DNA of 64,000 bases from a phage: the NCBI GenBank assembly GCA_014816185.1, contig GCA_014816185.1_4095.1. One strand, given 5' to 3'. Of this stretch, positions 333 through 53,016 are shown piece after piece (position 1 is the first letter of the stretch; each line of letters starts with the position of its first letter). A program made the translations under genes and the position numbers. The notes under the pieces were generated by a model. The model was not told where the DNA came from. It was given only the letters and a program-made list of their open reading frames with translations, and did no database searches.

Positions 333-662
<330 letters not shown>

Positions 663-830: not shown

Positions 831-920
<90 letters not shown>

Positions 921-926
921 TACACT

Positions 927-1352
927 ATGAAATACAACATTGTTAGAATGGTGAACTATGTATTAAAAAACAACGCATGGTCATTGCATGATGTACAATT
1001 AGAAGATATTGGTGAAGTTAGAGTATTTTGCTATGATCCAGATTTGAATCAAACCACAGATTTGAGTAAATGTTTTAATATTTTTCTTGGTTATGAATTC
1101 AATAATCATTTTTATTCATTTGATGTGTATTTTGAAAAAGTTATATTCAGAAGTTATGAATGTGATAATGAAGATTATGATTATGATGACGAATCAATTG
1201 AATTGAATGTTAACGATATTGATACTGAAGAAAAATTCTTCCAGTACTGCCTCGTTAACAACACATTAGGATTAACATTTGATGACATTAGTGCTATCCT
1301 TAAAGTTCAAAGATTGATTCCAGAAGAGGTATTAAATCCGTTAAATGACTAG
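927..1352 (+). CDS. hypothetical protein, paralog family A
   Basis: C-terminal motif FFQY..N..GLT.DD..AIL.V.RLI shared with 1345, 2421 and 2851 ORFs. Confidence 0.6.
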   Translation: MKYNIVRMVNYVLKNNAWSLHDVQLEDIGEVRVFCYDPDLNQTTDLSKCFNIFLGYEFNNHFYSFDVYFEKVIFRSYECDNEDYDYDDESIELNVNDIDTEEKFFQYCLVNNTLGLTFDDISAILKVQRLIPEEVLNPLND

Positions 1353-1710
1353 TCTAATAGTACGTATAATGCAAGATGTTTGTAATAACCTTTATACAGG
1401 CAATTTTGACGATCCGAACATAAAAATATTATGTTATGATGGTTTTACAATGGTACATCCAGCCTATTCAAATAATATCTACGTAGCATATACAGGTGAA
1501 AATCTATTATATCAATTTGATATATATAGTACAATGACAAAGATAATTTTGGATGCATCTAAACCAGCAATCTTTATTGCTTCTCATGATTACCATTACA
1601 CTGAAGAATCACTATTTCAGTACTCAATGATTAATGACATTGGTGGGTTGACATTGGATGAGGTTAATGCTATACTAGCTGTCTCACGTTTGGTTAAAAC
1701 CCACAATTAG
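1345..1710 (+). CDS. hypothetical protein, paralog family A
   Basis: Start overlaps upstream stop; shares C-terminal motif LFQYSMINDIGGLTLDEVNAILAVSRLV. Confidence 0.6.
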   Translation: MTSLIVRIMQDVCNNLYTGNFDDPNIKILCYDGFTMVHPAYSNNIYVAYTGENLLYQFDIYSTMTKIILDASKPAIFIASHDYHYTEESLFQYSMINDIGGLTLDEVNAILAVSRLVKTHN

Positions 1711-1719
1711 GAGATTCAT

Positions 1720-1911
1720 ATGTTCTGGAATTTATTATGCTTGTTTGGTCGTACATTGGTTCTTGCTATTATTCATACACCTGGTATTCGTAATTATGTT
1801 TCTTATGAATTTAAGAAAAATTATCACAACAATACTGAAGTTCGTACAACTAAGATGTGCAAAGACTTCAAGGTAGATGTTCCACCATTCAAGAAGTACG
1901 AGGATGAATAA
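1720..1911 (+). CDS. small protein with hydrophobic N-terminus
   Basis: AGGAG SD upstream; N-terminal hydrophobic stretch. Confidence 0.5.
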   Translation: MFWNLLCLFGRTLVLAIIHTPGIRNYVSYEFKKNYHNNTEVRTTKMCKDFKVDVPPFKKYEDE

Positions 1912-2195
1912 TGGAATTCATTGTTGCACCTGATGAACTTAAAACATTCACGTTCAGAGATAATAACAATTATCCTTATACAAATCATTCATTGAATTCA
2001 TTACATGTTATTGCAATCATTGCATCTGAATACAGGGATAATCCATGTATTGATTTTAAAACCACTGATGGCGAATATACATGGGTGATCCCAAAAGATA
2101 AATATAGTTATCAAGGGGCAGTAGAAATTCGTGACTCGATTCTAAAACAAATCGAAGATGGAAATACTCATCCTAAACTAAACACTCAGTACTGA
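1911..2195 (+). CDS. hypothetical protein
   Basis: TAATG start/stop overlap, GAGGA SD. Confidence 0.55.
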   Translation: MEFIVAPDELKTFTFRDNNNYPYTNHSLNSLHVIAIIASEYRDNPCIDFKTTDGEYTWVIPKDKYSYQGAVEIRDSILKQIEDGNTHPKLNTQY

Positions 2196-2208
2196 AATCG
2201 TTTAACCC

Positions 2209-2264
2209 GATAGCTTCTAGTCAGTACTGATTCCTCCTTATGTATAGAAGCTATCACTTTTTTA
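2209..2264 (+). terminator. hairpin plus T-run
   Basis: Inverted repeat GATAGCTTCTA...TAGAAGCTATC with long loop containing CAGTACTG, followed by CTTTTTTA. Confidence 0.4.
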
Positions 2265-2384
2265 CGTATAATGATATTACCCTCAAATTCATTATATTCG
2301 TTACCCTCTAACAGTATCTTTTTATTCCTCTTGGATGCTGTAATTTAGAAGTTGACTTTTTAACTTCTACTGTGTTATACTTAA

Positions 2385-2411
2385 GGCTGATTCGATGAAT
2401 CGGCCTTTTTT
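2385..2411 (+). terminator. rho-independent terminator-like hairpin
   Basis: GGCTGATTC-GAT-GAATCGGCC stem-loop followed by TTTTTTC, just upstream of the 2421 start. Confidence 0.5.
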
Positions 2412-2420
2412 CTTATATAG

Positions 2421-2849
2421 GTGAATGCAATGAGTTATTTGTTTACTTTAATTGATAAGTATGTTGACATTGTATACCGTCAAGTTTGTAGTGATACGTT
2501 TGAAACAAAAAACCCAATTAGAGATGGCATTTTTGATGTTGTCGTTGGATCATTTTTGAATGGATACACAGAGACATTATACAACAGTAATAATATTTTT
2601 ATTTCAGTTCAATCCAGACATACATCAGACTATGCTGTTAGCATTGATATTTGGGAAAATAATATAGAAATAGATATAACGGAACATACTAACATTCATG
2701 TTGATGATACATTTAATCAATTAACTGAAGAAATGTACTTGCAGTTGAATTTTGTACATGATCTTACAAATATCAGTTATGATACATTAAGGAAAATATG
2801 TTTTCTTAGTGGGGTGATCCGTAGTAATATGAGTAAGGATAGGAAGTGA
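2421..2849 (+). CDS. hypothetical protein, paralog family A
   Basis: SD AGGTGA; C-terminal family A motif. Confidence 0.6.
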   Translation: MNAMSYLFTLIDKYVDIVYRQVCSDTFETKNPIRDGIFDVVVGSFLNGYTETLYNSNNIFISVQSRHTSDYAVSIDIWENNIEIDITEHTNIHVDDTFNQLTEEMYLQLNFVHDLTNISYDTLRKICFLSGVIRSNMSKDRK

Positions 2850-2850
2850 A

Positions 2851-3267
2851 ATGTTAAAAATTCCACCTAAGTCGTTAACACATCTTATTGAATGTGGTGT
2901 AATATTTTCCGAAGGTGATACCTCATCATACACATTGGTCGATGAACCTTATAATTTTTCATACCAATCTTATAAAAATAATTCTAAAATTTCTTGTAGA
3001 TATGCTGAAAACATATTAATAGATGTTTCGTTACATAATGTTCCGAAATTTTACATTGATATCTTTGGTGATTCTTTGACAATTCGAACATATGATTATT
3101 TTATTAATAAAGACCTCTTGAGTCTTCCAATTGAACATGATACTATAGATTCAGAGATGTTCTTTCAACTATCAACAGTTTACGATTTACAGGGTTTAAC
3201 TGTTGAGCAGTTGAATGGAATATTTGAGATTTCACGAAACATACGAAGCAGGAATAAAAATGTCTAA
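2851..3267 (+). CDS. hypothetical protein, paralog family A
   Basis: SD GGAAGTGA; C-terminal motif MFFQLSTVYDLQGLTVEQLNGIFEISRNI. Confidence 0.6.
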   Translation: MLKIPPKSLTHLIECGVIFSEGDTSSYTLVDEPYNFSYQSYKNNSKISCRYAENILIDVSLHNVPKFYIDIFGDSLTIRTYDYFINKDLLSLPIEHDTIDSEMFFQLSTVYDLQGLTVEQLNGIFEISRNIRSRNKNV

Positions 3268-3661
3268 TATTTTAAATGAAAAAACAGTTGATGTTGTTAT
3301 TGGTGTTCTTAACACCGCAACTTCATTTCAGAAGAAACACAGTGTTGTATACTTTGGTGAAGATTGTTGGCTGAACTATACTAATAATTCGTTTATAATT
3401 CGTGTAGAGGCTGATGATATTGGATTAACCGTTCAGGTAGGATGTGCCAAAACTGACAAACAAATCACTGTCATTGTTGATAAACTTACGTCTTCTTTTT
3501 ATGATAGTATAGATGATTGTGAACACTATAGTTCAACATTTTATGATACAGAAGAAGAACATTTTATGGAAAGTACTGTTCAAGAGTTAGCTATTCCATA
3601 TAAGCTAATGAAAGCCGTGAGTGATTTAATTTTAAAATATAAAAAAAATAGGAGTTACTAA
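3260..3661 (+). CDS. hypothetical protein
   Basis: Start moved from track position 3215 to internal ATG with AGGAA SD (MSNILNEK). Confidence 0.55.
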   Translation: MSNILNEKTVDVVIGVLNTATSFQKKHSVVYFGEDCWLNYTNNSFIIRVEADDIGLTVQVGCAKTDKQITVIVDKLTSSFYDSIDDCEHYSSTFYDTEEEHFMESTVQELAIPYKLMKAVSDLILKYKKNRSY

Positions 3662-4107
3662 TGCAATTTAATGGTAAAGTTTCCAAAGTAGGTTTGGTTT
3701 TTGAAAACTGTGAATTTGTTGATATTGATGTAAAGAATGTTTTATGGATGCATATTGCTGATGAGAAGACTCTTTGTAGCCGTTTTTCAAACGGACTGAC
3801 AATTAGTACTGTTATCGGTGAGTTCGGTATTGCATTACGCAGCAATACACCATCGGATTTCATGGACAACTCTACACTGTTAGACCGTTTAAAAATGCGT
3901 GACGTTACACACGTTTATCTATATGATACTAACGGTGTTGAACAGCGTTATGTAGTTGAATGGGCTAATTATAACCTTAGTGATCAATATTCAGTAAACC
4001 AGCGTGTTCAAATCACCCCTGGTGGTAATATTGTGTTTGTTAGTTCAACTGGTAAATTAATCAGTGTAGATGATAAAAACATTGACCTATTCACAGCATA
4101 TAACTAA
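3661..4107 (+). CDS. hypothetical protein
   Basis: AGGAG SD, TAATG overlap with upstream stop. Confidence 0.6.
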   Translation: MQFNGKVSKVGLVFENCEFVDIDVKNVLWMHIADEKTLCSRFSNGLTISTVIGEFGIALRSNTPSDFMDNSTLLDRLKMRDVTHVYLYDTNGVEQRYVVEWANYNLSDQYSVNQRVQITPGGNIVFVSSTGKLISVDDKNIDLFTAYN

Positions 4108-4118
4108 TACGAGCTTCC

Positions 4119-4538
4119 ATGAAAACAATCAAAATTCATTTCAAAGACACTTGGACAGAAGTAAGTACTGGTAATATTCAGGATATTTTATATAGTACTG
4201 AAACTATTCATGTTTATGATGAAGAGACTGCTTCCGAGCAGTTAAAAGTTTTGCATCGTAGTGTTGGTGTGCACACTGAATATGGCATTAAACATACTCG
4301 TGAATTACTTAATACTAATCACATTGAAACCCGTAAAGCAAACTTATCAAAAGAAGAAATGTTCGATTTCATCCTGAACCATAAAGTTCATATTGAGCCT
4401 GATGGGTCTATATGGGAGAACACTGCTGGACAAAAAGTGCTGAAAAAATATCATGTTTCAATTGATAATGTAAAAATGTCAGGGTATGATTTGGAAGATG
4501 CAATTAATGAATATGTATCTAGGCAGAGGGCAAATTGA
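4119..4538 (+). CDS. hypothetical protein
   Basis: ORF in gene-dense plus-strand run. Confidence 0.55.
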   Translation: MKTIKIHFKDTWTEVSTGNIQDILYSTETIHVYDEETASEQLKVLHRSVGVHTEYGIKHTRELLNTNHIETRKANLSKEEMFDFILNHKVHIEPDGSIWENTAGQKVLKKYHVSIDNVKMSGYDLEDAINEYVSRQRAN

Positions 4539-4909
4539 TGAGCTTGATAACATTTACAATTATTTGTTGCATTACTATTGTACTTTGTCGCCTGATTCAT
4601 GTATACTCATATCATAAAGCGTTGCGAATCGAACAAGAGATTTACAACGAAAACCGAGAACCAGAACCAGTCAAGAAGCCACCATCACCTTATGGGTTGA
4701 AACGTGAGATGCATTCTCAAAGTAAAAAGTGGGGTTATGCAATTACTAAAAATGGCTACATCTATACTGCAAGTAATGGTTATTTTCAAATTCACCACGA
4801 ATTAGAAGTGGCAGTTCAAATTTTGTGGGAGATGGAGGACATTGGTGGTTATGAGCGTACTAAGTTTGAATTCATATCAAATGATCCAGGAACTTCACGA
4901 GAAACATGA
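4535..4909 (+). CDS. hypothetical protein with N-terminal TM segment
   Basis: ATGA overlap, GAGGG SD, hydrophobic N-terminus. Confidence 0.5.
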   Translation: MMSLITFTIICCITIVLCRLIHVYSYHKALRIEQEIYNENREPEPVKKPPSPYGLKREMHSQSKKWGYAITKNGYIYTASNGYFQIHHELEVAVQILWEMEDIGGYERTKFEFISNDPGTSRET

Positions 4910-5054
4910 TATAATTGTTGATGTGGAGAAGAAGGAAGTCGTTATGAAAAAGCAAGCATATAGAATTTTAGAAGACTTCCATCTAAAAGCATTTATAATG
5001 AAGTTCTGTACAGATGAACATCTTACCGGACGAGTAATACGTAAGGAGTTGTAA
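4842..5054 (+). CDS. hypothetical small protein (start uncertain)
   Basis: Overlaps previous gene in another frame; internal ATG near 4944 has AGGAAG SD and may be the true start. Confidence 0.3.
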   Translation: MVVMSVLSLNSYQMIQELHEKHDIIVDVEKKEVVMKKQAYRILEDFHLKAFIMKFCTDEHLTGRVIRKEL

Positions 5055-5396
5055 ATGAACTTAAGTTCAACAATTCAGTACTTGAGCAGTAACTTCGAGA
5101 AAATTATTTCTCGCGGTGGGATGATTGTACACCCAGAAACAGAGGAAATGTACATCATTGGATTTGATAAAAATTCTTATGATCAAGTACTTGTAATTTC
5201 CAAGTTAGAAAGTTATAATGAAGTTGTTCAGTTTTGCTGTACCGAATTTGGTATATATATTAAAGACGCTGAAACTAATACAATTTCGCATTATTTTTAC
5301 CACACACTGATGGGTACTAAAGACTTCGGCTTGAAGTTCGATGATTTAGTACAATGTCACTATATGTTTAAAACCTTCCCAGCTAGTGGGCATTAA
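5055..5396 (+). CDS. hypothetical protein
   Basis: AAGGAG SD. Confidence 0.6.
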   Translation: MNLSSTIQYLSSNFEKIISRGGMIVHPETEEMYIIGFDKNSYDQVLVISKLESYNEVVQFCCTEFGIYIKDAETNTISHYFYHTLMGTKDFGLKFDDLVQCHYMFKTFPASGH

Positions 5397-5409
5397 GGAG
5401 TATATCAAT

Positions 5410-6198
5410 ATGAGCAACATTTTCTTCAAAACTATTTCTTTCAAAAAAGCATCTTACTCCTACGCCTACGTTGATGGTAAAGTGCTTAATATTGTACTGG
5501 ATGGTGTTGACGTACCAGTTGAATTTAAAACACATGAAGAAGCAGTTGAAGGTGCTAAAGAATTGAATTCAATTCTTAATGGTGAAGTAAGTCAAAAACA
5601 ACATGTAAAATCTGATTTAGATGTACTTTTGGAAAAAATCAAAACTGGTGAAGTATTAGAAATTTTAGACAACTGTAATGAAAAACTTCGTAATGTAGTT
5701 AATAATGTTCGTGACCAGATTCAAGAAAAAGCACTAGAGCAAGCATTCAAACATGTATCCAAGAATGCTGAATCTCGTATTGACGGTATGGTTAAAAATC
5801 TTGATGATGTACTATCTCATCTCTTTACTAAAGAATACGAACAAGAAGTTGAAGAAGAACCAGTAAAAGAAACTAAAAAAGAAAAACGTAGCTTTGGCTC
5901 AGGTGATGATGTGTTTGGTTTTACGAATGTCCGAACAAGTGCAGATGAACCAAAAGAAATTAGTGAGATGCTCATTGGTGACATGACAACTAAGCAGCTT
6001 CGTAATGAAATTGACAAGTTTGTAACTAGTTGTATCAAATCAGAACGTGCACAAAGTATGTTTAAAAGCATTAGTGAGAACTTTGGTCCAGAAGCAACTG
6101 AGCAGGCACTAACTGCATTTAAAGAATTGATTTATAATGTAGCCATTAGCAATCCAGATAAAACACTTGAAGAAGTTCTACGTGACAATTTCAAATAA
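5410..6198 (+). CDS. hypothetical acidic protein
   Basis: Start moved to ATG with AGGAG SD (MSNIFFK); charged, coiled-coil-like composition. Confidence 0.6.
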   Translation: MSNIFFKTISFKKASYSYAYVDGKVLNIVLDGVDVPVEFKTHEEAVEGAKELNSILNGEVSQKQHVKSDLDVLLEKIKTGEVLEILDNCNEKLRNVVNNVRDQIQEKALEQAFKHVSKNAESRIDGMVKNLDDVLSHLFTKEYEQEVEEEPVKETKKEKRSFGSGDDVFGFTNVRTSADEPKEISEMLIGDMTTKQLRNEIDKFVTSCIKSERAQSMFKSISENFGPEATEQALTAFKELIYNVAISNPDKTLEEVLRDNFK

Positions 6199-12190: not shown

Positions 12191-13156
12191 GTGAAAAAGC
12201 TTGATTTAAATACAATTGCCGAAGAAGTTCTGGATGAATGTTTTGCTAATGAAGAAGTCAACACACTAGAAGCCTTAGATTTCGTTGAAGATAAAGATGA
12301 AAATGAAGGTAAAGTACAAAGCAGTTTCAAATATAATATTACACTTAAGCGACCACCAAATGTTTCCAATGAAGATCTAATTCGTGATATTCAAGCTGGT
12401 ATCAATGTAAAGAAAAACACTGAACTGTTAGTTCGTTACAATTATGGACTGATTATTGATGTAGCAAGTAAATGTACTTGTTATATCCCATTTGAAGATA
12501 AGATTTCATATGGTGTTGAGGGGTTCATGAGAGCACTAAAAACCTTTGATCTTAATAAGAATGTTAAGTTCATTACCTATGCTTCTTCTAGTATTTACAT
12601 GACAGTCTATAACGAAAGTTCTGACGCTAACTATATGGTACACTTCCCACGTTATATGAGTGTTCATAAGATCAAAGTAAAAAGATTCTGTCAGGAATAT
12701 ATGCGTAAACATGGTGTTCGCCCAACTCCTGAAATAATCTCAGAGGGTACTGGGATTGAGATTCAGCATGTTAATAATTGTTTGTTATTTCAAAGCGAAT
12801 ACACTTCGCTGGATGCACCATTAGACGGTGTTACAGATGGTACATTAGGTGACATTATTCATTCACCTGCTTCTGATTTTAACCTCAATGTTGATAGTAT
12901 CCGTGCACCTTTGCGTTATGCTATCAATGAACTGACCAACGAATTGAGTACTAAAGAACGTGAGATTATCCAGCGTGTTCATGGTCTAGGTGAATATGAA
13001 CCTGAAACGCTTCGTGAGATTACTGATAATGGTTTTGTTGATGATAATGGAAAATATGTTAAATCCCGTTCATCAATACACCGAAAGTACAGTGAAGCTA
13101 TGCAAAAGCTTAAGAAGTTAGTACTTGCAAAAGGGTACGAATACGAAGATTTCTAA
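12191..13156 (+). CDS. putative sigma70-family sigma factor
   Basis: GTG start with AGGAG SD; region-2-like segment LVRYNYGLIIDVASKC...GVEGFMRALKTFDLNKNVKFITYASSSI and region-4-like C-terminus; recognised by eye only. Confidence 0.5.
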   Translation: MKKLDLNTIAEEVLDECFANEEVNTLEALDFVEDKDENEGKVQSSFKYNITLKRPPNVSNEDLIRDIQAGINVKKNTELLVRYNYGLIIDVASKCTCYIPFEDKISYGVEGFMRALKTFDLNKNVKFITYASSSIYMTVYNESSDANYMVHFPRYMSVHKIKVKRFCQEYMRKHGVRPTPEIISEGTGIEIQHVNNCLLFQSEYTSLDAPLDGVTDGTLGDIIHSPASDFNLNVDSIRAPLRYAINELTNELSTKEREIIQRVHGLGEYEPETLREITDNGFVDDNGKYVKSRSSIHRKYSEAMQKLKKLVLAKGYEYEDF

Positions 13157-17573: not shown

Positions 17574-17774
17574 ATGTTTACTTTATATCTTGCAGTAGTA
17601 CTAACTAATGGTGAAATCACTCGCACCGTTGGTGAAGGTGTATATAAAACACCTGATCAGTGTTACTCTGCAACTCATTGGCCTCGTGATGCTGGTGATG
17701 AATCTCGCACTGAATACAAATGTATGAAGGTTAAAGGTGACTTTGTAAATCTAAAGGTTATTGAGACTAAGTAA
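17574..17774 (+). CDS. hypothetical protein
   Basis: SD AAGGA. Confidence 0.55.
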   Translation: MFTLYLAVVLTNGEITRTVGEGVYKTPDQCYSATHWPRDAGDESRTEYKCMKVKGDFVNLKVIETK

Positions 17775-18292
17775 TGGATATTAATGAGTTGTTGAAATTA
17801 GTGTTTAATCGTGAACGCCGCGATACAAGACCAATTGAATATCAAGATGTGATATGCATTGAAACTGATTTCTGTTATGGTAAAACAACTCATGACCTTT
17901 TGAATCTCTCTGGAAAACGCTATGCTGATGTTTGTTTTTCAGAGAGAAGTGATGGTTCAGAAATAACGAGTACTGATATTGTTTGTTACGCACGCAGTGC
18001 TGATAAATCTTATGAAATAGAACTTATATATTCCCCTAGTTCTAAAACAAATCATCACCGCCATATTTTATATGATGTTTACACACCACCTGGTATTGCT
18101 GAATATTTTGTTATTGATTATAGTACTGAAGAAAATGTGTTTCAACAAAGTTTGATTCATAACTTTGAGGTTAATGATCCATTAGTGCCAAAGTTATTCA
18201 AACTACTTGACACCATCGATGTTGATTTTGAATTTGTTATGTGTATTAGAACTTCTTTATTCAATGAATTCATGGAACTTTTTAATATATGA
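17774..18292 (+). CDS. hypothetical protein
   Basis: TAATG overlap. Confidence 0.6.
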   Translation: MDINELLKLVFNRERRDTRPIEYQDVICIETDFCYGKTTHDLLNLSGKRYADVCFSERSDGSEITSTDIVCYARSADKSYEIELIYSPSSKTNHHRHILYDVYTPPGIAEYFVIDYSTEENVFQQSLIHNFEVNDPLVPKLFKLLDTIDVDFEFVMCIRTSLFNEFMELFNI

Positions 18293-23100: not shown

Positions 23101-23322
23101 ATGAAATATATAGTACTTGTACTGATATTATTCAGTACTGTTGTAAGTGCTAAACAAAAAGAATATGTTAAATGTATAAATTATGAAGAGAAATATGTTG
23201 AAACATATAAAAAAAGTATAATTAAAAACGTTTCGATTACTAACAGAGCAACAATCATTGTACTTAAAAATGGGTTAATTATGCTATATAAACCACACGT
23301 TAAATGTGAAATTATTAATTGA
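23101..23322 (+). CDS. small secreted protein
   Basis: Signal peptide MKYIVLVLILFSTVVSA. Confidence 0.55.
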   Translation: MKYIVLVLILFSTVVSAKQKEYVKCINYEEKYVETYKKSIIKNVSITNRATIIVLKNGLIMLYKPHVKCEIIN

Positions 23323-23329
23323 GGAAATT

Positions 23330-23902
23330 ATGAATCGTAAAGGTCGTTTTAAAGTATCAAAAAAGAACAAAAGTTCTAGGTTTAAACCTATTGTTTTAAC
23401 AGTTAAATCTAACAAAGAATTAACTGCACTTAGTAAAAAGATAATTTCATCTAAGATTGAAGTATCATACGTAAATTCATTAAAATATATGAATGTCAAA
23501 CCACTGGACCAACTCATTTCACTTATATTTGAACGTAATGATTTTGAGATATCAGTAGATGATTATAGAGCCTATAATGCTGGTTTCATTAATGTTACTT
23601 GTAATAAAAAACTAACTGAGTTGGAAAATTTGTCATGTATAATAAATCTAGATAAAGGTGTTGTGAAGTACCATTTTGTACATTTCACTAATATCAATAA
23701 TGGAATGGGTGTACAATCCAGACCTATAGTGCCTACGTGTGATGTTACTAAATTAGCAAAGCTCAATGATGAAGAATATTTTCAAGAAAGCATTGTAACT
23801 GAGCATTTAGATGATATAATAGCTACTTACAAAGAATGCATATGGGTGTTGAATGCTATAAAACCTAAATTGTGTTTAATGAATATTGTTCGTGATTTAT
23901 GA
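23330..23902 (+). CDS. hypothetical protein
   Basis: Start moved to ATG after GAGGAA (MNRKGRFK). Confidence 0.55.
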   Translation: MNRKGRFKVSKKNKSSRFKPIVLTVKSNKELTALSKKIISSKIEVSYVNSLKYMNVKPLDQLISLIFERNDFEISVDDYRAYNAGFINVTCNKKLTELENLSCIINLDKGVVKYHFVHFTNINNGMGVQSRPIVPTCDVTKLAKLNDEEYFQESIVTEHLDDIIATYKECIWVLNAIKPKLCLMNIVRDL

Positions 23903-39527: not shown

Positions 39528-40697
39528 CTAAGCAGAAGGCATATCCTTCATCTTAATAAATGAAAATTGTGTACCAGTATTTGTGGTTTGATCAGTAAAA
39601 TATGAATTACTACCAGCCCAGTACAATTCATTATTAACTATACAATATATAACAGAACTCGAACTCTGTGAATACACACGACTTATATTTGATGGTTCTA
39701 CTCCAGTACTGAACTGAACCGAACCCAACTGTGAACTTGGTATCACATCAGTTGGTCTACCTAAACCATTAACACCAGCCCCACCACCACATGTATATAT
39801 CCCAGTACTATCAGTTGATATATTAACATAACCATTTCCAGCATTTTCAAATAGTATTTCACTGGGAACAACACCAAATCCTGTAAGATCTATTTTCCTG
39901 AATGTAGTATAAACCGTAGAACCGCCAACACCTCTTCCACCATAATCATTAGAACCAGCCATATAGATACTATATCCAGAACTTCCTAAACATAATAACT
40001 GTACGTTGTCATATAATATTTGCATAGATATAACGTTATCAGGAATACTCAATACCGTAAAAGTAGTTAAAGAAGAACTTCCAATATTACTACCAACCGA
40101 TGTTCCACATCTGTAGTACTTACCGCCCTTTATATAATGGAATGATGAACCACCTAATTTATGTGCTCCTATTGCACTTACCTCAGTATCTATGAGAATG
40201 GGAGATACAACTTTGTTATTAACACCTAACTCAGATCTACTGTTCATACCGAACCCATATAAACGACCATCTAACATCAATATTAGTGTACTACCGGAAG
40301 TACCCGCTGACGTAAATTCTATATTCTTTATTTGCGACACGTCAATACCTACAAATAATGAAGTTACTTCAGTCCAGTTAACATATGAACCACTAGCCCC
40401 AAAATATCCACCCATGTATAGACCTGCACAATATAATTTATTATCAACAGTCTTTATTAATGTACCGGATACACACGCCCAAAAATCATCAACTTCATAG
40501 GGTACATGTACCCAACCACCTAATACATCACTAGCATCCCCTGTACCTAATTTATAGTTCGAACCAGAACCACGCATGTACATATTCCCTGTACTATAAA
40601 GTAATCCGACATGTAATTGACTACCATCCAATTTCTTTATTTCAGGAAGAGTTGGTTTAATATTTCCGTACTTTAACATTCTTCCAAAAGGTAACAT
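39528..40697 (-). CDS. RCC1-like repeat protein, MLPF family
   Basis: Start set at conserved MLPFGRM (track ORF reads through the upstream cassette); AAGGAGG SD; GxNxxGQLG-type motifs. Confidence 0.7.
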   Translation of the reverse strand: MLPFGRMLKYGNIKPTLPEIKKLDGSQLHVGLLYSTGNMYMRGSGSNYKLGTGDASDVLGGWVHVPYEVDDFWACVSGTLIKTVDNKLYCAGLYMGGYFGASGSYVNWTEVTSLFVGIDVSQIKNIEFTSAGTSGSTLILMLDGRLYGFGMNSRSELGVNNKVVSPILIDTEVSAIGAHKLGGSSFHYIKGGKYYRCGTSVGSNIGSSSLTTFTVLSIPDNVISMQILYDNVQLLCLGSSGYSIYMAGSNDYGGRGVGGSTVYTTFRKIDLTGFGVVPSEILFENAGNGYVNISTDSTGIYTCGGGAGVNGLGRPTDVIPSSQLGSVQFSTGVEPSNISRVYSQSSSSVIYCIVNNELYWAGSNSYFTDQTTNTGTQFSFIKMKDMPSA

Positions 40698-40775
40698 AAT
40701 TCCTCCTTTATTCATTATACTATATTTAATACAAATAAGAAAGCCAGTACAAAGTACTGGCATAGTTTTATAGTA

Positions 40776-41885
40776 TTATTTCGGCATTGTAATTGCAGAC
40801 CATGAGTTCGTGGTAATAGGACCTGGTACATACAAAAAAGAACCACAAGCATAAATTTGATTATTACCATCAAATACTATACTAAAATGTGCACATGTGT
40901 ATAATGATGATTTTTCTGGGTTGTAATTATCTAAAGTTAGTGTATTGGTGAATCTACTCAAACCACCTCCCGAACCATTTCTACCAAATTCACCAGTACT
41001 GTATATCTTTCCTTCGGTTGTTGCGTACATATTAACATATGAAGTCGCACTTGATTTTGATATTTTATGTATCTTACTATCAATAGTAGTGGAGTTAAAT
41101 GCAAATGGATATACTTGTGTGTTCGTTGTAATACCGTTACCAAGTTGACCAATATACTGCCAACCTGCGTTGTATATATTGCTGGCTGAATAAGCAAGAG
41201 TACCAGTACTGTTACCACCAAATAGTTTAACACTTGTTAACCTGCTTACTAGTGTAGTATACTGTCCTGGACTTACGCCAAGTGAACCATACCCACTGCT
41301 CCCGCAACCGAGAAGTTCATTATTTGATGTTAATATTAATGTGTTATTCTGTGTACCCAATATATCAAGAACTGTATTAGCTCCGGTATTAATAACTGAA
41401 ACAAAAGTACTCTGAGCCGTGGAATACCCACCACCGAGTGAATAGTTACCATTCATGCCTCTACCATAAACAATCGAACCACTAGCATCAACGTAGTGCA
41501 TTGTATCTGCACCAATTGATATCATTTTAATATTAGATATATGTGGAAATGAAGAAGTAACATTCAAACCACCCAACGGAATCATAGTATTTCCTGTGCC
41601 TAATTGTGTGGTAACTCCATGCATTATGAATTCTTCACCCTTGAGATAAAGAATATTGTACGCCCCAGCCCATGCATCAGTAACACCTTCTGAAATTAAT
41701 ATCCAAGTATTTCTTGTTGCTGTATTTTCAACGTTTAACTGAAAATACGTATTAACCCCACAACCATAAAGTGAGCCATCACCATAGAGGACGTACAAAT
41801 TATCAAGACCGCACAGTACTTTCTTTATCTTTGGAGCTTCAGGTGCAATATTTCCGTACTTAATCATTCTAACAAAAGGTAACAT
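40776..41885 (-). CDS. RCC1-like repeat protein, MLPF family
   Basis: Start at MLPFVRM; motifs GVNTYFQLN and GWQYIGQLGNG. Confidence 0.7.
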   Translation of the reverse strand: MLPFVRMIKYGNIAPEAPKIKKVLCGLDNLYVLYGDGSLYGCGVNTYFQLNVENTATRNTWILISEGVTDAWAGAYNILYLKGEEFIMHGVTTQLGTGNTMIPLGGLNVTSSFPHISNIKMISIGADTMHYVDASGSIVYGRGMNGNYSLGGGYSTAQSTFVSVINTGANTVLDILGTQNNTLILTSNNELLGCGSSGYGSLGVSPGQYTTLVSRLTSVKLFGGNSTGTLAYSASNIYNAGWQYIGQLGNGITTNTQVYPFAFNSTTIDSKIHKISKSSATSYVNMYATTEGKIYSTGEFGRNGSGGGLSRFTNTLTLDNYNPEKSSLYTCAHFSIVFDGNNQIYACGSFLYVPGPITTNSWSAITMPK

Positions 41886-41956
41886 ATTTCCCTCCTTATT
41901 CATTATACTATATTTAATACAAATAAGAAAGCCAGTATCAAGTACTGGCCTATATT
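41886..41956 (-). promoter_or_regulatory. conserved terminator-promoter-SD cassette (representative)
   Basis: Minus-strand sense GCCAGTACTTGATACTGGC hairpin + TTTCTTATTTG, then ATATAGTATAATGAATAAGGAGGGAA + ATG; near-identical copies in 40698-40775, 42695-42765, 43909-43980, 45145-45216, 46405-46475, 47625-47695, 48836-48905, 51227-51297, degenerate at 39456-39527. Confidence 0.65.
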
Positions 41957-42694
41957 TTAGACTGAATTGTTAGGATAATATCTCCCACGTCCCCATATTA
42001 TTCGCACAGCACCACCACCAGCAGCCGTATAAGAAAAATTATCCCATATACTACCACCACCACCATACATCTTACCAGCACCACCACTACCAGCACCACC
42101 ATTATATGAACCATCGTATCTACCGCCAATACCATTAGCACCTTGAACAATGATACCAGTACCACCACCCGTACCAATGAACGAGGTATTATAGAATGCA
42201 CCACCACCACCGCCGCCCCCAGCACCATTTTCACCAGTGATTGCATCTCCGTTACCACCTTTACCAGTGTAGCCACCAGCACCACCACCAATGACTGCAC
42301 CACCACTTACACCAGCGTTGCCCCCATTACCACCACCATCATTAATAGCGTTAGCAGCTTTCCCACCTAGTCCACCAACCCTATATTCACCAGTGAAGCT
42401 AACACATAGTTTTTCAGTTCCACGATATAAACCGTTTTCAACTGGTGTAGTAGTGTTGGGATGTGTAAGAGAAACACTTAAGTACTCACCACTAGTAACC
42501 GGAATATTATTACGCCACGATAAGCCGCCACCAGCACCACGTTGACCACCCGGCGAAATAACACATACTGATATTTCGGTAACGCCAGCAGGAACTGTAA
42601 ATTGTGTTGTTCCTATTGTCGTGATTAATTGTTCACCATGTGGCTTATATTCAATTTTATTCCCGTACTTAACCATTCTTCCAAAAGGTAACAT
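41957..42694 (-). CDS. Gly-rich protein with MLPF N-terminus
   Basis: N-terminus MLPFGRMVKYGN; body is Gly-rich low complexity rather than RCC1 repeats. Confidence 0.65.
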   Translation of the reverse strand: MLPFGRMVKYGNKIEYKPHGEQLITTIGTTQFTVPAGVTEISVCVISPGGQRGAGGGLSWRNNIPVTSGEYLSVSLTHPNTTTPVENGLYRGTEKLCVSFTGEYRVGGLGGKAANAINDGGGNGGNAGVSGGAVIGGGAGGYTGKGGNGDAITGENGAGGGGGGGAFYNTSFIGTGGGTGIIVQGANGIGGRYDGSYNGGAGSGGAGKMYGGGGSIWDNFSYTAAGGGAVRIIWGRGRYYPNNSV

Positions 42695-42765
42695 AATTCC
42701 CCTCCTTATTCATTATACTATATTTAATACAAATAAGAAAGCCAGTATCAAGTACTGGCGTAATG

Positions 42766-43908
42766 TCAATAAGTATCCCAAGGTAATGGTGTCTTCCTAA
42801 ATCCATACCTGGTTGTGCTCGCACCATCACCAGCAATGTATCTACCTATACCACATTGGTATAACTCTGTACTACTACATATAGCACCACCTATAGTACC
42901 ACTACTCCACTGAATTATATTAGAATATGTTATTGGTAAATCACTACATTTAGTATATACAGCAACGGTAGAAGCACCACTAATACCACCAAACATACTT
43001 CGGTTAGCACCAGTGTAATATATACCATCTGGACTCATAAATGCAGAGGTGTAAGTTGTACTGCAATCCACTGGACTTCTTATTGTATTAAGATCGCCTG
43101 GGTATGTCCTGACACCAAAGGTGTATACATTACCATCAGTTGTAATACCATTACCTAACTGCCCACTGCTTTGTCCACCACATGTAAGCAACAATGCAGA
43201 ACCAGAAACAATTGCAGTAGCATTATACGAAGTACCCATTGCAATAGAAGCACCAGACAATAGTTTTGGTGTAACGATAGCTGTTGTATTACCCTGGCCT
43301 AATTCACCATTTGTGTTTCGTCCCCATGCGTATATAGAAGTTGTATCCAAGCGACATAGTACTGAACCATAACTAAACGTATATCGCATGTCATTTACAG
43401 CAGAAGGCAAATTAACCTTAGTTGCAACACTAATAACACCGCCAGTAACACCACTGTTTGCGTTCATGTTACGACCATATGCATATAAAGAACCATCTGA
43501 AGTTTTAATATGCATCATACCATCTGTGCAATATAATGCATCGATGCTATCCACCGCAACCGGACCCATACTGGCAGTTATATCGGTCCACCCAAGAGTA
43601 GTAGTACTAGAAATTAAGTTATTTCCTGCATATAGTATTCTATTATTATTAGTAACTACCACTGTATATCTAGCAGTAACTCCAATTAATCGAACATCAG
43701 TATATATCTTAGACCACGCACCTAGTGAATTTGTATTTGCATCCAAAAAGCCTAACTGCCCATCTGTATTGTATCCAATACCCCATGCATCACCTGCACT
43801 GTCCAATAACACTTCATGTGAAAAGCCAATCTTAAAATCTTTTATTGTAGGAACTACTGGAACTGGTGCTATATTCCCGTACTTAACCATTCTTGCAAAA
43901 GGTAACAT
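42766..43908 (-). CDS. RCC1-like repeat protein, MLPF family
   Basis: GYNTDGQLGF, GRNTNGELGQG, GGQSSGQLGNG. Confidence 0.75.
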   Translation of the reverse strand: MLPFARMVKYGNIAPVPVVPTIKDFKIGFSHEVLLDSAGDAWGIGYNTDGQLGFLDANTNSLGAWSKIYTDVRLIGVTARYTVVVTNNNRILYAGNNLISSTTTLGWTDITASMGPVAVDSIDALYCTDGMMHIKTSDGSLYAYGRNMNANSGVTGGVISVATKVNLPSAVNDMRYTFSYGSVLCRLDTTSIYAWGRNTNGELGQGNTTAIVTPKLLSGASIAMGTSYNATAIVSGSALLLTCGGQSSGQLGNGITTDGNVYTFGVRTYPGDLNTIRSPVDCSTTYTSAFMSPDGIYYTGANRSMFGGISGASTVAVYTKCSDLPITYSNIIQWSSGTIGGAICSSTELYQCGIGRYIAGDGASTTRYGFRKTPLPWDTY

Positions 43909-43980
43909 AATTCCCCTCCTTATTCATTATACTATATTTAATACAAATAAGAAAGCCAGTATCAAGTACTGGCATTCTTT

Positions 43981-45144
43981 TTAAAATGGTGAATCTATTA
44001 CAAATACTAAGCTATTAATACCACCATATGTGACATCAGCCCCAGTACTATATACAAAATTACCATCAGTTATATAAGTACGGTTATACCCACCTGACAT
44101 TTGTGATTTACTATAATCAAAACCATCAGGTACGATTGCTTTGGTATATACTAATGCGTTAGTAGATGTACCAACACCTAACATACCAGCTTGTGTTGAT
44201 TGGTTGTAGCCACAACAATATATACCATCTGTTGTAGCAATAACTTGGTTATAATATGAAGTATTATGGGCCATACTGAGTACATCACCTGGTGGCATTA
44301 GGGAAGCAGTTTGAACAGCAAATGCTCTTATATCAGTACTATTCACTCCATCTGCCTGTGCACCAAATCTTTTCGCCCCACCATTGGCAATTATGGTTTT
44401 TCCATTTGGATCAGTACCAATAGCCATCGCCATTGAATTGTTATTATTTACATAGTACTCGATATTAATTACACTCCTTAGACTCGTAGGAGCACTAGTG
44501 TATACTGTATATAGAGAAGTACCACTAGTGCTAATTGCATTGACACGGCCTGTATAGTATAACCAACCGTTAGCAGTAACATAACCATGCATTAGATTAC
44601 TTGCAAACAATTTAAATGGTAATTGGTCTTCTTCAGTAGAGACTGTGCTCTGGACGAATTTAGTATTAACGTTGTTAGTTGTTGTCCCATTACCTAACTG
44701 ACCTTCTGCCCCTGCCCCAGTACTCCATATTGTTCGATCTGAAAGTAATACACTTGTAGTCTGATTACTAACTGCCATATCTAATATTGGTAATGTTAAT
44801 GTATTGAATGTTGGCATAGCAGAAGTCCACACTGATACGGCTGCCCCTGTCATACCAACAGTAGTTGACGAACCACTGTACCATATTTCATTGTTGAATT
44901 TCTTAATAACCAAAGAAGTGGTACTTAACCAAAAATCTTCAACACCAGAAGTACTTAACGTCCATGTAGTAACGGTTTCTTTGTGACCTAAACCCAAAAG
45001 ACCATTTGAATTCTGACCACGTACATATAAATCCCCACTGCTTGTTAAAACTGCAACGTTGTAGTTATTGGCGAGTATTTTTTTAAATTTCGGTGGTGCT
45101 GGTGCTATATTCCCGTACTTAACCATTCTTGCAAAAGGTAACAT
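43981..45144 (-). CDS. RCC1-like repeat protein, MLPF family
   Basis: GQNSNGLLGLG, GAGAEGQLGNG; C-terminus LVFVIDSPF. Confidence 0.75.
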   Translation of the reverse strand: MLPFARMVKYGNIAPAPPKFKKILANNYNVAVLTSSGDLYVRGQNSNGLLGLGHKETVTTWTLSTSGVEDFWLSTTSLVIKKFNNEIWYSGSSTTVGMTGAAVSVWTSAMPTFNTLTLPILDMAVSNQTTSVLLSDRTIWSTGAGAEGQLGNGTTTNNVNTKFVQSTVSTEEDQLPFKLFASNLMHGYVTANGWLYYTGRVNAISTSGTSLYTVYTSAPTSLRSVINIEYYVNNNNSMAMAIGTDPNGKTIIANGGAKRFGAQADGVNSTDIRAFAVQTASLMPPGDVLSMAHNTSYYNQVIATTDGIYCCGYNQSTQAGMLGVGTSTNALVYTKAIVPDGFDYSKSQMSGGYNRTYITDGNFVYSTGADVTYGGINSLVFVIDSPF

Positions 45145-45216
45145 AATTCCCTCCTTTATTCATTATACTATATTTAATACAAAAAGAAAAGCCAGTACTG
45201 AGTACTGGCTATTATA

Positions 45217-46404
45217 TTATAATTGTCGGGGTGTATCTAGTACATATCTAGTTGTACTAGGACCACCATCATCATAAGTTCCGGTTGAATATATATTTTT
45301 CATATCAGTTAGAAATGTACGATATGAACCTCTATATATTTTTATTTTATCATACATAGAATATGTTATTTGTGTAGGCATTGGACATGCAGTAAACTTA
45401 CCAACAGTTGCACTAGTACCAATACCCAATGAACCAGCATAACTACTGGCATTTAAACCAGTTGCATATACACCAGTACTCGTAATTAGTATACTAGATT
45501 GTGGTGGGTATCCAGTATGAATTGAATACAAAGTACCGGGTGGTAACGTAGTACTGTTATTTCCTAAAACTCCATTAACAGAGCTAGATGTAGTGTTATT
45601 TCCCCATGCCCCATTATTAGCTAACCCACCGACAAGGAACTGACGTGCTCCTGTATTTGGATTTTCAACTAAAGCACTTACTGCACCAGTTGAGCATCCT
45701 GTGTATTGTAACGTTTTTGTGTATGTTGTACTTGGTTGATATAAAGTATATTCATTATATGAAGTCCATGTAGTCGCGGAACTTATACCGGATGTAACAC
45801 CACCAATATATAAATTATTTTGTTTATCAAACATCAATACACAGTTATTTGTTGACTGTATTTGTGCAATATCAACATTAGGTGTGACCGCTTTTACAAA
45901 TGAACCATCGGTTATTTCATAAGTAGTTCCCGTTCCATCGGCGAATTGTCTAGCACTGTTCCACCCTGTACTCCATATTGTATTATTATCCATTAATACC
46001 GTAAACCACGTAGTACCTCCATACATCTGTTTAATTGAAGTACTTGAACTTTGTGTGTACAAATTTTCAATATATTGGTTATAACTTAAAAACGTAGTAG
46101 TACTTGTTGGTAAACCAATATGAGAACCATATCCACAATAAAAATAATTTAAGTCATTGTCTTTTACTAATAAAGTTCCTTGTGTAAGCCAGCAATCGTT
46201 AACGTTTTCTCTAATTAATGTCCATGATTTTAATGCAGTGTTGTTTCCTCTACCGAATTTCCCAAAACTATTATTCCCACGTGCATATAGTTGACCATCC
46301 GTATACAGAACCACAACATCTAAATCAGTTGGGATTATTTTCTTAATTTGAAGTGGTACTGGGGCAATATTCCCATAATTCATCATTCTTGCAAAAGGTA
46401 ACAT
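45217..46404 (-). CDS. RCC1-like repeat protein, MLPF family
   Basis: N-terminus MLPFARMMNYGNIAP; repeat-rich Gly/Asn/Thr composition. Confidence 0.7.
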   Translation of the reverse strand: MLPFARMMNYGNIAPVPLQIKKIIPTDLDVVVLYTDGQLYARGNNSFGKFGRGNNTALKSWTLIRENVNDCWLTQGTLLVKDNDLNYFYCGYGSHIGLPTSTTTFLSYNQYIENLYTQSSSTSIKQMYGGTTWFTVLMDNNTIWSTGWNSARQFADGTGTTYEITDGSFVKAVTPNVDIAQIQSTNNCVLMFDKQNNLYIGGVTSGISSATTWTSYNEYTLYQPSTTYTKTLQYTGCSTGAVSALVENPNTGARQFLVGGLANNGAWGNNTTSSSVNGVLGNNSTTLPPGTLYSIHTGYPPQSSILITSTGVYATGLNASSYAGSLGIGTSATVGKFTACPMPTQITYSMYDKIKIYRGSYRTFLTDMKNIYSTGTYDDGGPSTTRYVLDTPRQL

Positions 46405-46475
46405 AAATTCCTCCTTTATTCATTATACTATATTTAATACAAATAAGAAAGCCAGTATCAAGTACTGGCATTAAA

Positions 46476-47624
46476 TCATTGTATAAATGACATATCAACT
46501 TCTGTATAACTAAGAATGTTTTGTCCAGCAATTCCCCCCATTACTACCATAGCATACCCACAATAATATAATTGCTCAGTGTCCGTAAGTATAAGTGAAC
46601 CAGATGGAGTGCGTACCAAATTACACGAACTATTAAACGAAGTATACGAAGGAGTATATGAGTACTGATTAATATTATTACCAACACCTAATTGACCAAA
46701 TCCATTCGACCCAGATGCGTATAGAACTTCATCACCTTTAGCTATATGTGATGCCATGTTACTAACACACGTATATAGAGTATAAACTCCTGAACTCAAT
46801 AATGTCGGAGTTTTGTATTGTATATCGGTAGATGAAGAAGTACCACCTGTGCCAAATTCGTTCCCGTATTGTGCACCGAACTGTTTACCACAAGCGTACA
46901 AATTATTATCCGATTTAATAAAAAATGTACTTTGATAACTTACATCAAAATCTATAACATCCGAAGCAATCATCGTCACCCCAGTAATAGAAGTTTGATT
47001 ACCTGTACCTAACTGATAGTAATAGTTAAAACCACAACCCCATAAAGTATTATCTTCTTTTAGGTATATGTTACCAACTGCCTTTTTAACCGAAGTTATA
47101 GTATCTACCCTTTTGAATGTGTTAAAAGAATTAATGTTTGTACCATCACCAAATGATGATAGGTTCGAGTTATTGTTAACTCCACAACAATACAACGTAC
47201 CATCGTTTGTTATCAAATTCACCTTCATATCATTAAAACTACTCATGTATTTTATATCAGAAACATTAATACCACCTGATGTTATCCACGTAGTACAGTC
47301 CGTCCACAAAGTTTTTGTATCAGTTACACCAGTGAATGCCTTCGTGTTACCAGTGATAAAAACTTTTCCAGTACCTTTCTCTTCATACAATTGACAACTA
47401 CTACTGTTATCTTCCAATAGAACTCGTTTAACATTCTCCGCACAAAGAATAAATTTACTCGATGCTACACCTGTACCAGTACCCCAATTCGTCGCAGAAG
47501 ATGCATACAACTTATTAGTATAAGTATCATGAAGATACATAGAATCACTTGAATATATTTTAAAACGCCTATCCTTACCAGGGGCAATATTCCCATAATT
47601 CATCATTCTTACAAAAGGTAACAT
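46476..47624 (-). CDS. RCC1-like repeat protein, MLPF family
   Basis: GFNYYYQLGTG, GSNGFGQLGVG. Confidence 0.75.
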   Translation of the reverse strand: MLPFVRMMNYGNIAPGKDRRFKIYSSDSMYLHDTYTNKLYASSATNWGTGTGVASSKFILCAENVKRVLLEDNSSSCQLYEEKGTGKVFITGNTKAFTGVTDTKTLWTDCTTWITSGGINVSDIKYMSSFNDMKVNLITNDGTLYCCGVNNNSNLSSFGDGTNINSFNTFKRVDTITSVKKAVGNIYLKEDNTLWGCGFNYYYQLGTGNQTSITGVTMIASDVIDFDVSYQSTFFIKSDNNLYACGKQFGAQYGNEFGTGGTSSSTDIQYKTPTLLSSGVYTLYTCVSNMASHIAKGDEVLYASGSNGFGQLGVGNNINQYSYTPSYTSFNSSCNLVRTPSGSLILTDTEQLYYCGYAMVVMGGIAGQNILSYTEVDMSFIQ

Positions 47625-47695
47625 ATTTCCCTCCTTTATTCATTATACTATATTTAATACAAATAAGAAAGCCAGTACAGTGTACTGGCATTATA

Positions 47696-48835: not shown

Positions 48836-48905
48836 ATTCCCTCCTTTATTTGTTATACTATATTTAATACAAATAAGAAAGCCAGTACTCTGTACTGGCA
48901 TTATG

Positions 48906-50015: not shown

Positions 50016-50023
50016 ATTCCCTC

Positions 50024-51226: not shown

Positions 51227-51297
51227 ATTTCCCTCCTTTATTCATTATACTATATTTAATACAAAAAGAAATGCCAGTATCAAGTACTGGCATAATA

Positions 51298-52807: not shown

Positions 52808-53016
52808 ACACTATGAACATTGAACAGTACTACATCGATGCACTACCAACAAAAGGTCTACGAGAAAGCCTACTGTATACACAAAATAATTATATAAACT
52901 TCAAACATTGTCCTAAACTCTTGAACTCGTACAGGAATAATAAAATAAGAAATGCTGTACAAGGGGTAGAAAGTATGCAATACTATTACATCCTAACCCT
53001 TTTAATCGAGCACTAA
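52804..53016 (+). CDS. small protein array paralog
   Basis: MNIEQYYIDALP; ATGA overlap. Confidence 0.55.
   Translation: MNTMNIEQYYIDALPTKGLRESLLYTQNNYINFKHCPKLLNSYRNNKIRNAVQGVESMQYYYILTLLIEH

Follow-up and report, generated by a model that had tools for sequence, protein, structure and literature searches.

Do four small open reading frames (ORFs) that end alike and begin differently belong to one protein family, how far does that family extend, and what might it do? The question arises at positions 927-3267 of the window, by which we mean the whole 64,000-nucleotide stretch of phage DNA analysed here (contig GCA_014816185.1_4095.1 of GenBank assembly GCA_014816185.1). The original prediction, made from the letters of this stretch, was that the ORFs starting at 927, 1345, 2421 and 2851 are paralogs sharing only a C-terminal motif behind divergent N-terminal regions. 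The window originates from an Asteriusvirus (PBECO4/121Q/SP27-type) jumbo phage of Escherichia coli: its bases 900-5400 share 99.6% identity with Escherichia phage SP27 and 95-99.5% with PBECO4, 121Q, G17, Sharanji and further Asteriusvirus jumbo phages, which range from 347 to 386 kb, and in all relatives the genes of the region are labelled 'hypothetical protein'. Our analysis leads us to conclude that the four ORFs belong to an undescribed superfamily rather than to a known system; that they have no relative of known function; and that the members arose through repeated local duplication followed by divergence.

All four ORFs are present on the plus strand where they had been placed, and each ends in a version of the motif. 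ORF 927 (927-1352) encodes 141 amino acids with an isoelectric point (pI) of 4.1; its motif, TEEKFFQYCLVNNTLGLTFDDISAILKVQRLIPEE, lies at 1224-1328, behind an insert rich in Asp, Glu and Tyr (D/E/Y). The start of ORF 1345 (1345-1710; 121 amino acids, pI 4.7) overlaps the stop of ORF 927 (ATGACTAG), and its motif, TEESLFQYSMINDIGGLTLDEVNAILAVSRLVK, is at 1600-1698. The third ORF was called mechanically at 2421-2849, with a GTG start and 142 codons; its real start is likely the ATG at 2430, because a GGTGA Shine-Dalgarno sequence lies 5 nt upstream and the annotation of relatives agrees. The resulting protein of 139 amino acids (2430-2849; ORF 2430 below) is the most divergent of the four and carries the motif TEEMYLQLNFVHDLTNISYDTLRKICFLSGVIRSN at 2724-2828. 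ORF 2851 (2851-3267; 138 amino acids) begins with an ATG 1 nt past the stop of ORF 2430, has an AGGA Shine-Dalgarno sequence within the end of that gene, and carries the motif DSEMFFQLSTVYDLQGLTVEQLNGIFEISRNIRSRN at 3148-3255.

The similarity of the C-terminal ends is significant by alignment. We split the proteins at the acidic start of the motif and ran Smith-Waterman shuffle tests on the two parts separately. For the C-terminal ~35-40 amino acids, all six pairs gave z = 4.5-19.6, at most 2 of 500 shuffles reaching the observed score, and comparison of the C-parts through sub-family profiles built from orthologues gave P = 6e-15 to 3.5e-3. The least circular test was an external profile of 32 distant relatives, built without window sequences and without close orthologues. 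Searched against the 253 window ORFs of at least 50 amino acids, this profile found the four ORFs with E = 1e-19 to 4e-26 (1.3e-19 for ORF 927, 2.7e-24 for ORF 2851 and 4e-26 for ORF 2430) and aligned all of them over almost their whole length. The literal pattern first proposed, E.FFQY..N...GLT.D...AIL.V.RL, is a good fit to ORFs 927 and 1345 but a loose one to ORFs 2851 and 2430; what the family as a whole conserves is T-E-E-x-[FY]-F-Q-x-S-x-[VIL]-x-D…[LI]-[TS]-x-[DE]-E-[LI]…I…I. The motif positions use all synonymous codons, including both TCN and AGY for serine, implying that conservation acts on the protein and not on the DNA.

The four are indeed paralogs. All-versus-all BLASTP of the same 253 ORFs linked ORF 927 to ORF 1345 (E 1.8e-10 over 104 amino acids) and ORF 1345 to ORF 2851 (E 1.3e-5 over 105 amino acids), and ORF 2430 joined the group through a three-sequence profile (E 1.3e-4). 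The N-terminal regions are as divergent as had been proposed, their similarity being significant in few pairs only: 927/1345 (shuffle z 5.9, hhalign P 3.6e-4) and 2430/2851 (hhalign P 5.7e-4). For 1345/2851 it is weak (shuffle z 3.2) and not significant by sub-family profile, and no N-part pair other than 927/1345 and 2430/2851 was significant in the sub-family profile comparison. Neighbouring genes are mutually closest relatives, which points to two tandem duplications.

Structure prediction gives a different view of the N-terminal regions. The AlphaFold2 model of ORF 1345, computed from a 19-sequence family alignment, reached a predicted local distance difference test score (pLDDT) of 89.2 and a predicted template-modelling score (pTM) of 0.82. 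It consists of a helix (residues 4-15), strands 26-32, 44-51, 54-61, 64-68 and 76-79, and helices 87-96 and 104-114. The model of ORF 2430 (2430-2846, 47-sequence alignment; pLDDT 90.2, pTM 0.85) has a helix at 3-20, seven strands, a short helix at 93-97 and helices at 100-109 and 117-138. One member of each adjacent pair is therefore represented, and both models have the same order: an N-terminal helix, which is amphipathic, an antiparallel β-meander of five to seven strands, and two C-terminal helices. The motif corresponds to the two C-terminal helices and the intervening loop, with TEE at the start of the first helix and L-T-x-[DE]-E at the start of the second. Because the same order of elements recurs in two models and the external profile aligns nearly full length, the motif in these proteins would be the best-conserved segment of one single domain rather than a separate module behind unrelated N-termini. 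For the four ORFs, then, the idea that they share only a C-terminal motif is not borne out: the two that were modelled share a full predicted fold, a four-element helix/sheet layout at pLDDT 89-90.

Column statistics over 47 core-family sequences, in ORF 1345 numbering, single out Q92 as nearly invariant (46 of 47). Hydrophobic columns are F90, F91, V96, L102, L107, I110, I113 and I117, and conserved positions within the sheet are Y31, N44 and I-D-I-Y at 58-61.

How far does the family extend? The count of four carriers was an underestimate, since a converged profile raises it to 8 in the window and to 58 in a complete genome. The nearest addition is ORF 3260 on the plus strand (3260-3661, 133 amino acids from the ATG at 3260; mechanical ORF from 3215), whose start overlaps the stop of ORF 2851 and whose motif, TEEEHFMESTVQE, has Met replacing Gln. 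This fifth, more divergent member (motif TEEEHFMESTV; converged-profile E 1.8e-12) represents a sister sub-family. The profile of this sub-family matches core-family members at E 1e-7 and 1e-5, profile-profile comparison gives hhalign P 4e-5, and the sub-family adjoins core members in the phages RaK2 and Hallingskeid as well. Three remote members, all on the plus strand, complete the eight: 17774-18292 (172 amino acids, pI 4.6, motif STEENVFQQSLIHNF; E 1.3e-3 with the external and 1.9e-8 with the converged profile), 23306-23902 (198 amino acids, basic, motif NDEEYFQESIVTEH; E 3.4e-4 and 2.3e-11, respectively) and 54579-55238 (219 amino acids, basic, motif TPEEEFMYSTVID; converged-profile E 1.9e-8), the last being the least secure because it joined only at a late iteration. 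Two further candidates were rejected. ORF 38389-39051 (SSDLMFQYSLIH) scored E 0.007-0.011 with earlier profiles and was not kept by the converged profile at E<0.01. ORF 5055-5396 (113 amino acids, plus strand), whose C-terminus, FGLKFDDL…, looks motif-like by eye, is unrelated (hhalign P 0.055); it evolves slowly, with a ratio of nonsynonymous to synonymous substitution rates (dN/dS) of 0.08-0.13 and 69% identity to RaK2.

Beyond the window, the 50 kb upstream of it in SP27 contain 11-13 further ORFs matched by the family profiles; all 13 of those listed have a motif-like block near the C-terminus, the weakest (L009 45016-45408) reading EEDEFQKNT. For a complete census we used the assembled genome of ECO103 4-12-1, a near-identical, unannotated phage of 351,992 bp, from which 968 ORFs of at least 60 amino acids were taken. 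The starting profile matched 23 ORFs at E<1e-4, and iteration converged at 58, all on a single strand and 103-229 amino acids long. Reversed and shuffled ORF sets served as controls and gave nothing better than E 0.05. The hallmark, [ST]-E-E-x-[FY]-F-[Q/M]-x-S-x-[IVL] followed by the second helix, lies 27-97 residues from the C-terminus and is present in all four ORFs; its central column reads F-Q in 54 of the 58 and F-M in the other 4. Even EE.[FYL]FQ by itself is found in 28 ORFs of this genome, against 0.18 in shuffles; three of these carriers are not among the 58, and they are borderline profile matches within the arrays. Together the members occupy 7.7% of the genome's DNA and make up roughly 10% of its genes. 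They are clustered: the array with the reported ORFs contains 16, and a second one, 28 kb long and farther along the genome, contains 35, which are the majority of its ORFs. Many adjoining members overlap by 1-8 nt, and translational coupling is frequent. Between the arrays, whole sequences match, by way of the C-terminal module, with an hhalign probability of 96-97%, while the N-parts alone give P 0.4-0.8. Judged by these comparisons, only the C-terminal module appears detectably conserved across the superfamily, so that the picture first drawn for the four ORFs is accurate at that larger scale.

Where else do such proteins occur? By tblastn they are found in Asteriusvirus genomes, with the C-terminal block matched weakly in Klebsiella phages of the RaK2/K64-1 type and in an Erwinia jumbo phage. 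Profile searches of syntenic regions found three members in RaK2, five to six in Hallingskeid and three in Salmonella phage Munch. A word-indexed search yielded 115 clusters, all of them orthologous to one or another of the four ORFs (57-98% identity). An exhaustive hidden Markov model search of 1.84 billion cluster representatives with the core profile yielded only 40 proteins with E of 1e-3 or lower. Two of them are long, with many short-stretch matches, and the other 38 are 87-174 amino acids, mostly matched near full length. None of the 40 has a name besides 'hypothetical', and those with a named source come from an Asteriusvirus-sized contig. In these searches the superfamily is specific to RaK2-like jumbo phages, and the family of the four ORFs forms one branch of it.

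Existing collections hold the same proteins, but divided. In PHROGs, ORFs 927 and 1345 match phrog_17453 (E about 1e-56), as does ORF 2851 (E 1.2e-11); ORF 2430 matches phrog_35192 (E 3.9e-97) and ORF 3260 phrog_24027. The 57 genome-wide members that were scanned fall into 45 PHROGs, including phrog_12674, 13866, 9317 and 15629, all of unknown function, and these entries record neither the shared hallmark C-terminal module nor the fold. Pfam and NCBIfam gave no match for the four ORFs. Across the 57 members Pfam gave no family match, only three sub-threshold matches to unrelated families, one member each. The anti-phage defence models of PADLOC gave no match at E up to 1, a sequence profile search of the PDB nothing better than E 0.15, and a Foldseek search of predicted viral structures (BFVD) only proteins from the same group of phages, none of them characterised (UB, PBECO4, CBB, fHe-Yen9-04, RaK2 and pEa_SNUABM_47). 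The predicted order of an N-terminal helix, antiparallel sheet and C-terminal helices recalls the two-layer α+β sandwiches of frataxin/CyaY and Mam33/p32/gC1qBP, but no significant structural superposition with such a sandwich was obtained. We found no description of an EE-x-FFQ-x-S family in the literature. No relative has a virion label on the window members or on the genes under the largest cluster. A 'virion structural protein' label under the first BLAST match is that of ORF 5386-6198, a neighbour outside the family.

The genes lie in a distinctive transcriptional setting. A perfect sigma-70 consensus promoter (TTGACA-16-TATAAT) at 517-544, plus strand, precedes a small ORF, a tRNA-Thr(UGU) gene and the 927/1345 pair. 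A second element on the same strand, at 2352-2407, divides the 927/1345 unit from the 2430/2851/3260 unit: a promoter-like site (TTGACT-18-TG-TATACT) at 2352-2381 is followed by a strong intrinsic terminator at 2383-2407, and a terminator at this site is also annotated in phage G17. Transcripts from the promoter-like site would start within the 5' arm of the hairpin and would thereby escape termination, so that the element looks like a compact terminate-and-restart unit. Across the window, 24 plus-strand sites match the sigma-70 consensus at 11 or all 12 positions, nine of them perfectly, against 1.9 +/- 1.2 in shuffles, an excess noted over positions 1-35000; in the ECO103 4-12-1 genome the coding strand carries 97 such sites and the opposite strand 11. 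This excess on the coding strand implies that the phage appears to rely heavily on the host RNA polymerase holoenzyme, and the location of the family genes in blocks rich in host sigma-70-consensus promoters suggests that they are probably transcribed by it in the early or middle phase of infection. For the related phage CBB, the corresponding region, with its RpoD-like promoters, sigma factor and short hypothetical ORFs, has been proposed to serve early host takeover (PMC5259590). The window, too, encodes a phage sigma-70-family factor (Pfam regions 2, 3 and 4; 12191-13156, plus strand), ~9 kb downstream of the reported genes, in a position conserved in Ecwhy_1 and Munch.

The tRNA-Thr gene (837-910, plus strand; identified by ARAGORN) ends 16 nt upstream of ORF 927 and is kept in RaK2, A4 and JNE01. 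The tRNA genes beside the family array vary among relatives (regions L007, L005, L001 and L002): JNE01 (L007, 1936-2088) has tRNA-Thr in two copies; the upstream tRNAs are Ser, Met and Asn in G17 and A4, and Arg, Ser, Ser and Asn in RaK2; and HNH endonuclease genes lie among the tRNAs in Hallingskeid, Munch and JNE01.

The proteins are mostly acidic and their gene content is fluid. The four ORFs have pI 4.1-4.9 and net charges of -6 to -18; the 58 members have a median pI of 4.84, with 78% below 5.5, against 53% among the remaining ORFs of comparable size. Inspection of the four ORFs by eye, a predictor not having been applied, showed neither a signal peptide nor a membrane segment, and we therefore take the proteins to be soluble and cytoplasmic. 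In ORF 927, residues ~78-98, between the last β-strand and the motif, form a hypervariable, low-complexity insert rich in D, E, Y and C, the length of which varies among orthologues (P0080, P0101 and P0110; for example EDYECDHEECECECEDDKS and VDYDNDDDVDYDNEDYEA). Syntenic regions of ~14 kb contain five strong and two weak matches in A4, four and one in JNE01, and three and one in Ecwhy_1. Ecwhy_1 is without an orthologue of ORF 2851 and JNE01 without one of ORF 1345, and neither ORF 2430 nor ORF 2851 has a counterpart of more than 42% identity in Ecwhy_1, JNE01 or A4. The largest array is at least 80% covered in 7 of 36 related genomes, and the genes under it are all labelled 'hypothetical protein' save one 'amidohydrolase 3' in phAPEC6. 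Family members have dN/dS of 0.2-0.55, compared with 0.07-0.3 for neighbouring genes, implying purifying but relaxed selection. Separately, synonymous divergence across window positions 927-6198, measured against regions L005, L007 and L008, swings from 0.02 to about 2 from gene to gene between the same two genomes, which points to a recombination mosaic in this region.

What might such a family do? The explanation that we favour, with a probability of about one half, is that one scaffold has been diversified into a panel of binding proteins that serve host takeover or anti-defence. The genes would be transcribed by the host RNA polymerase early or in mid-infection. The invariant structural core would consist of the conserved hairpin of helices plus the N-terminal helix, and the fast-diverging face of the β-sheet and its loops, including the D/E/Y-rich insert of ORF 927, would set the particular target of each paralog. 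Those targets would be host proteins, either of defence systems or of the housekeeping machinery. Small acidic early phage proteins have familiar roles as DNA mimics and enzyme inhibitors, and the four ORFs may be compared with T7 Ocr, T4 Arn, T4 IPI and AcrIIA4, which they resemble in size (~90-140 amino acids), low pI, predicted early expression, accessory character and the absence of an enzymatic signature. The order of elements in AcrIIA4 is helix, β-strands, helix, helix. The four ORFs have no sequence or structural similarity to the known DNA mimics Ocr, ArdA and Arn.

Several observations weigh against this interpretation. The fold is predicted for two members only, and comparisons of N-parts between clusters are not significant. 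The division into a hairpin core and a binding face on the sheet is based on conservation patterns, not on the geometry of the models, and the conserved polar residues N44, D59, E87, E88, Q92, S94 and D98 may instead mark a shared functional site. The dN/dS values lie below 1, giving no direct sign of positive selection. Early expression is read from promoter-like sequences alone; sigma-70-like sites are found over much of the genome and correlate only weakly with the density of members (rho 0.37). Finally, 8 of the 58 members are basic, which fits poorly with the idea of a uniform set of DNA mimics.

The main alternative, which we regard as tentative, turns the argument around: the proteins could be adaptors whose C-terminal helix-loop-helix docks or oligomerises on one common partner, while the variable N-parts select cargo or targets, somewhat as poxvirus ankyrin/PRANC proteins and bacterial protease adaptors do. 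The partner might be a protease or unfoldase, a chaperone, RNA polymerase or other members of the family. The detectable conservation of the C-terminal module alone across the 58 members speaks for such a docking element, and the polar and charged motif positions E87, E88, Q92, S94 and D98 exceed the needs of a hydrophobic core. The short overlaps between many neighbours also favour co-expression and possibly hetero-oligomers, but the pairs are not obligatory, given the missing orthologues in JNE01 and Ecwhy_1. Against docking, too, the hairpin lies within confident single-chain models, T86 and T103, along with the acidic residues after them, resemble ordinary helix N-caps, and no candidate partner was identified. 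Munch carries, ~2 kb downstream of its family members (region L006, 6231-7466), a gene for a 411-residue protein annotated 'mitochondrial chaperone'. From that annotation we suspect a BCS1-like AAA+ ATPase, which could be a common partner if the proteins were adaptors. The boldest version, which we consider doubtful, would have the invariant EE-FFQ-S hairpin dock ~60 members onto a single host or phage machine, with the variable parts delivering or blocking targets; the superfamily would then amount to a modular takeover or counter-defence system built on an undescribed fold.

It is improbable that the proteins are instead packaged in the virion and ejected. In that case the C-terminal module would target the capsid or scaffold, [LI]-[TS]-E-E would be a prohead-protease site of the T4 type, and the N-terminal domains, freed within the head, would be injected with the DNA against host defences, as is T4 IPI. 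Many divergent small proteins with one terminal tag are the pattern expected of a sorting signal, and the residue before T-E-E is hydrophobic in 83% of the 47 core sequences (L in 19, I in 10), giving L/I-T-E. That position is not kept across the 58 members, however, among which Y-T-E-E, K-T-E-E, D-T-E-E and N-T-E-E are seen; the known T4 targeting sequence is N-terminal, unlike the C-terminal module here; and the motif stands at the beginning of a helix predicted with confidence, not in an exposed linker. Annotation of a member as a virion protein is absent from all relatives. The promoters ahead of the genes are of the sigma-70 type, and no T4-late-like TATAAATA lies within 150 nt upstream of members, although this last test is weak and uninformative because the genome has only 8 such sites.

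We give very little credence to the notion that the motif is a site for a Gln-specific protease, so that a cut after the Gln of E-E-x-[FY]-F-Q-x-S would process or regulate the proteins. Potyvirus NIa proteases such as that of tobacco etch virus (TEV) recognise E-x-x-Y-x-Q and cut before G or S, and picornavirus 3C sites read L-E-V-L-F-Q, cut before G-P. The Gln, present in 54 of 58 members, always follows an aromatic pair and an acidic pair, and one ECO103 4-12-1 member, G_223055_223504, reads E-E-G-Y-F-Q-G-S, which matches the TEV consensus. Yet the residue after the Gln is variable, the conserved Ser lies two positions past it rather than one, and its sole substitute is Met. Moreover, protease substrates must be extended, whereas this segment is predicted to be helical, with conserved hydrophobic residues.

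That the genes are neutral duplicates or non-genes, repeated DNA that keeps an open frame without a protein function, would suit their lack of known function and their highly variable presence among close relatives, but it is scarcely credible in view of orthologues of the four at 57-98% identity in more than 100 database clusters, dN/dS values indicating purifying selection, Shine-Dalgarno sequences and coupled starts, a motif conserved at the amino-acid level while synonymous codons vary, and confident predicted folds.

The same window holds other amplified families, so that the description of this one as an additional case stands; they include a minus-strand array of RCC1 repeats, an array of ~60-residue ORFs and smaller pairs. 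The first, at 39528-52476, comprises ~10 paralogous ORFs of 370-430 amino acids, of which the three scanned have RCC1-like repeats (Pfam RCC1, RCC1_2 and WD40_RLD). It is the only long minus-strand block of the window, and the sign of the GC skew flips across it. The second, at 52804-57382 on the plus strand, is a dense array of ~20 similar ORFs of 60-78 amino acids (BLASTP E down to 2e-24); the two copies scanned had no Pfam match, and family profiles gave no link to the EE-FFQ-S family. Also on the plus strand, ORFs 59880-60119 and 61888-62157 form a paralogous pair of 63% identity, the first of which, the one scanned, matches Pfam DUF7249.

Lineage-specific multigene expansion is a familiar phenomenon in large viruses. 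The closest parallels that suggest themselves are the MGF110/360/505 families of African swine fever virus and the ankyrin-PRANC proteins of poxviruses, eukaryotic viruses in which such families have known host-range or immune-evasion roles. Like these, the phage genes form dozens of tandem, diverging paralogs in variable regions, with copy number changing from strain to strain, and the poxvirus PRANC proteins in particular would share with them a conserved C-terminal element behind variable N-parts. The likeness is one of pattern: there is no relationship of sequence or fold, and the host here is bacterial.

Jumbo phages carry hundreds of ORFans without known origin or role. Our data show that a sizeable share of those in Asteriusvirus and RaK2-like phages are related to one another, ~58 genes now spread over 45 PHROGs of unknown function having one ancestor and one helix-loop-helix hallmark, so that a single profile annotates ~10% of the genes in these therapeutically studied coliphages. 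They also illustrate a mechanism of genome gigantism, local duplication with divergence. The family offers a candidate set for screens of host takeover and anti-defence activity, in which its natural variation in presence and absence could be correlated with host range, and a scaffold without a clear structural relative could reveal a new class of phage-host interaction protein. If a single scaffold has indeed radiated into ~60 genes, the superfamily would stand beside the multigene families of large eukaryotic viruses as their equivalent in a phage.

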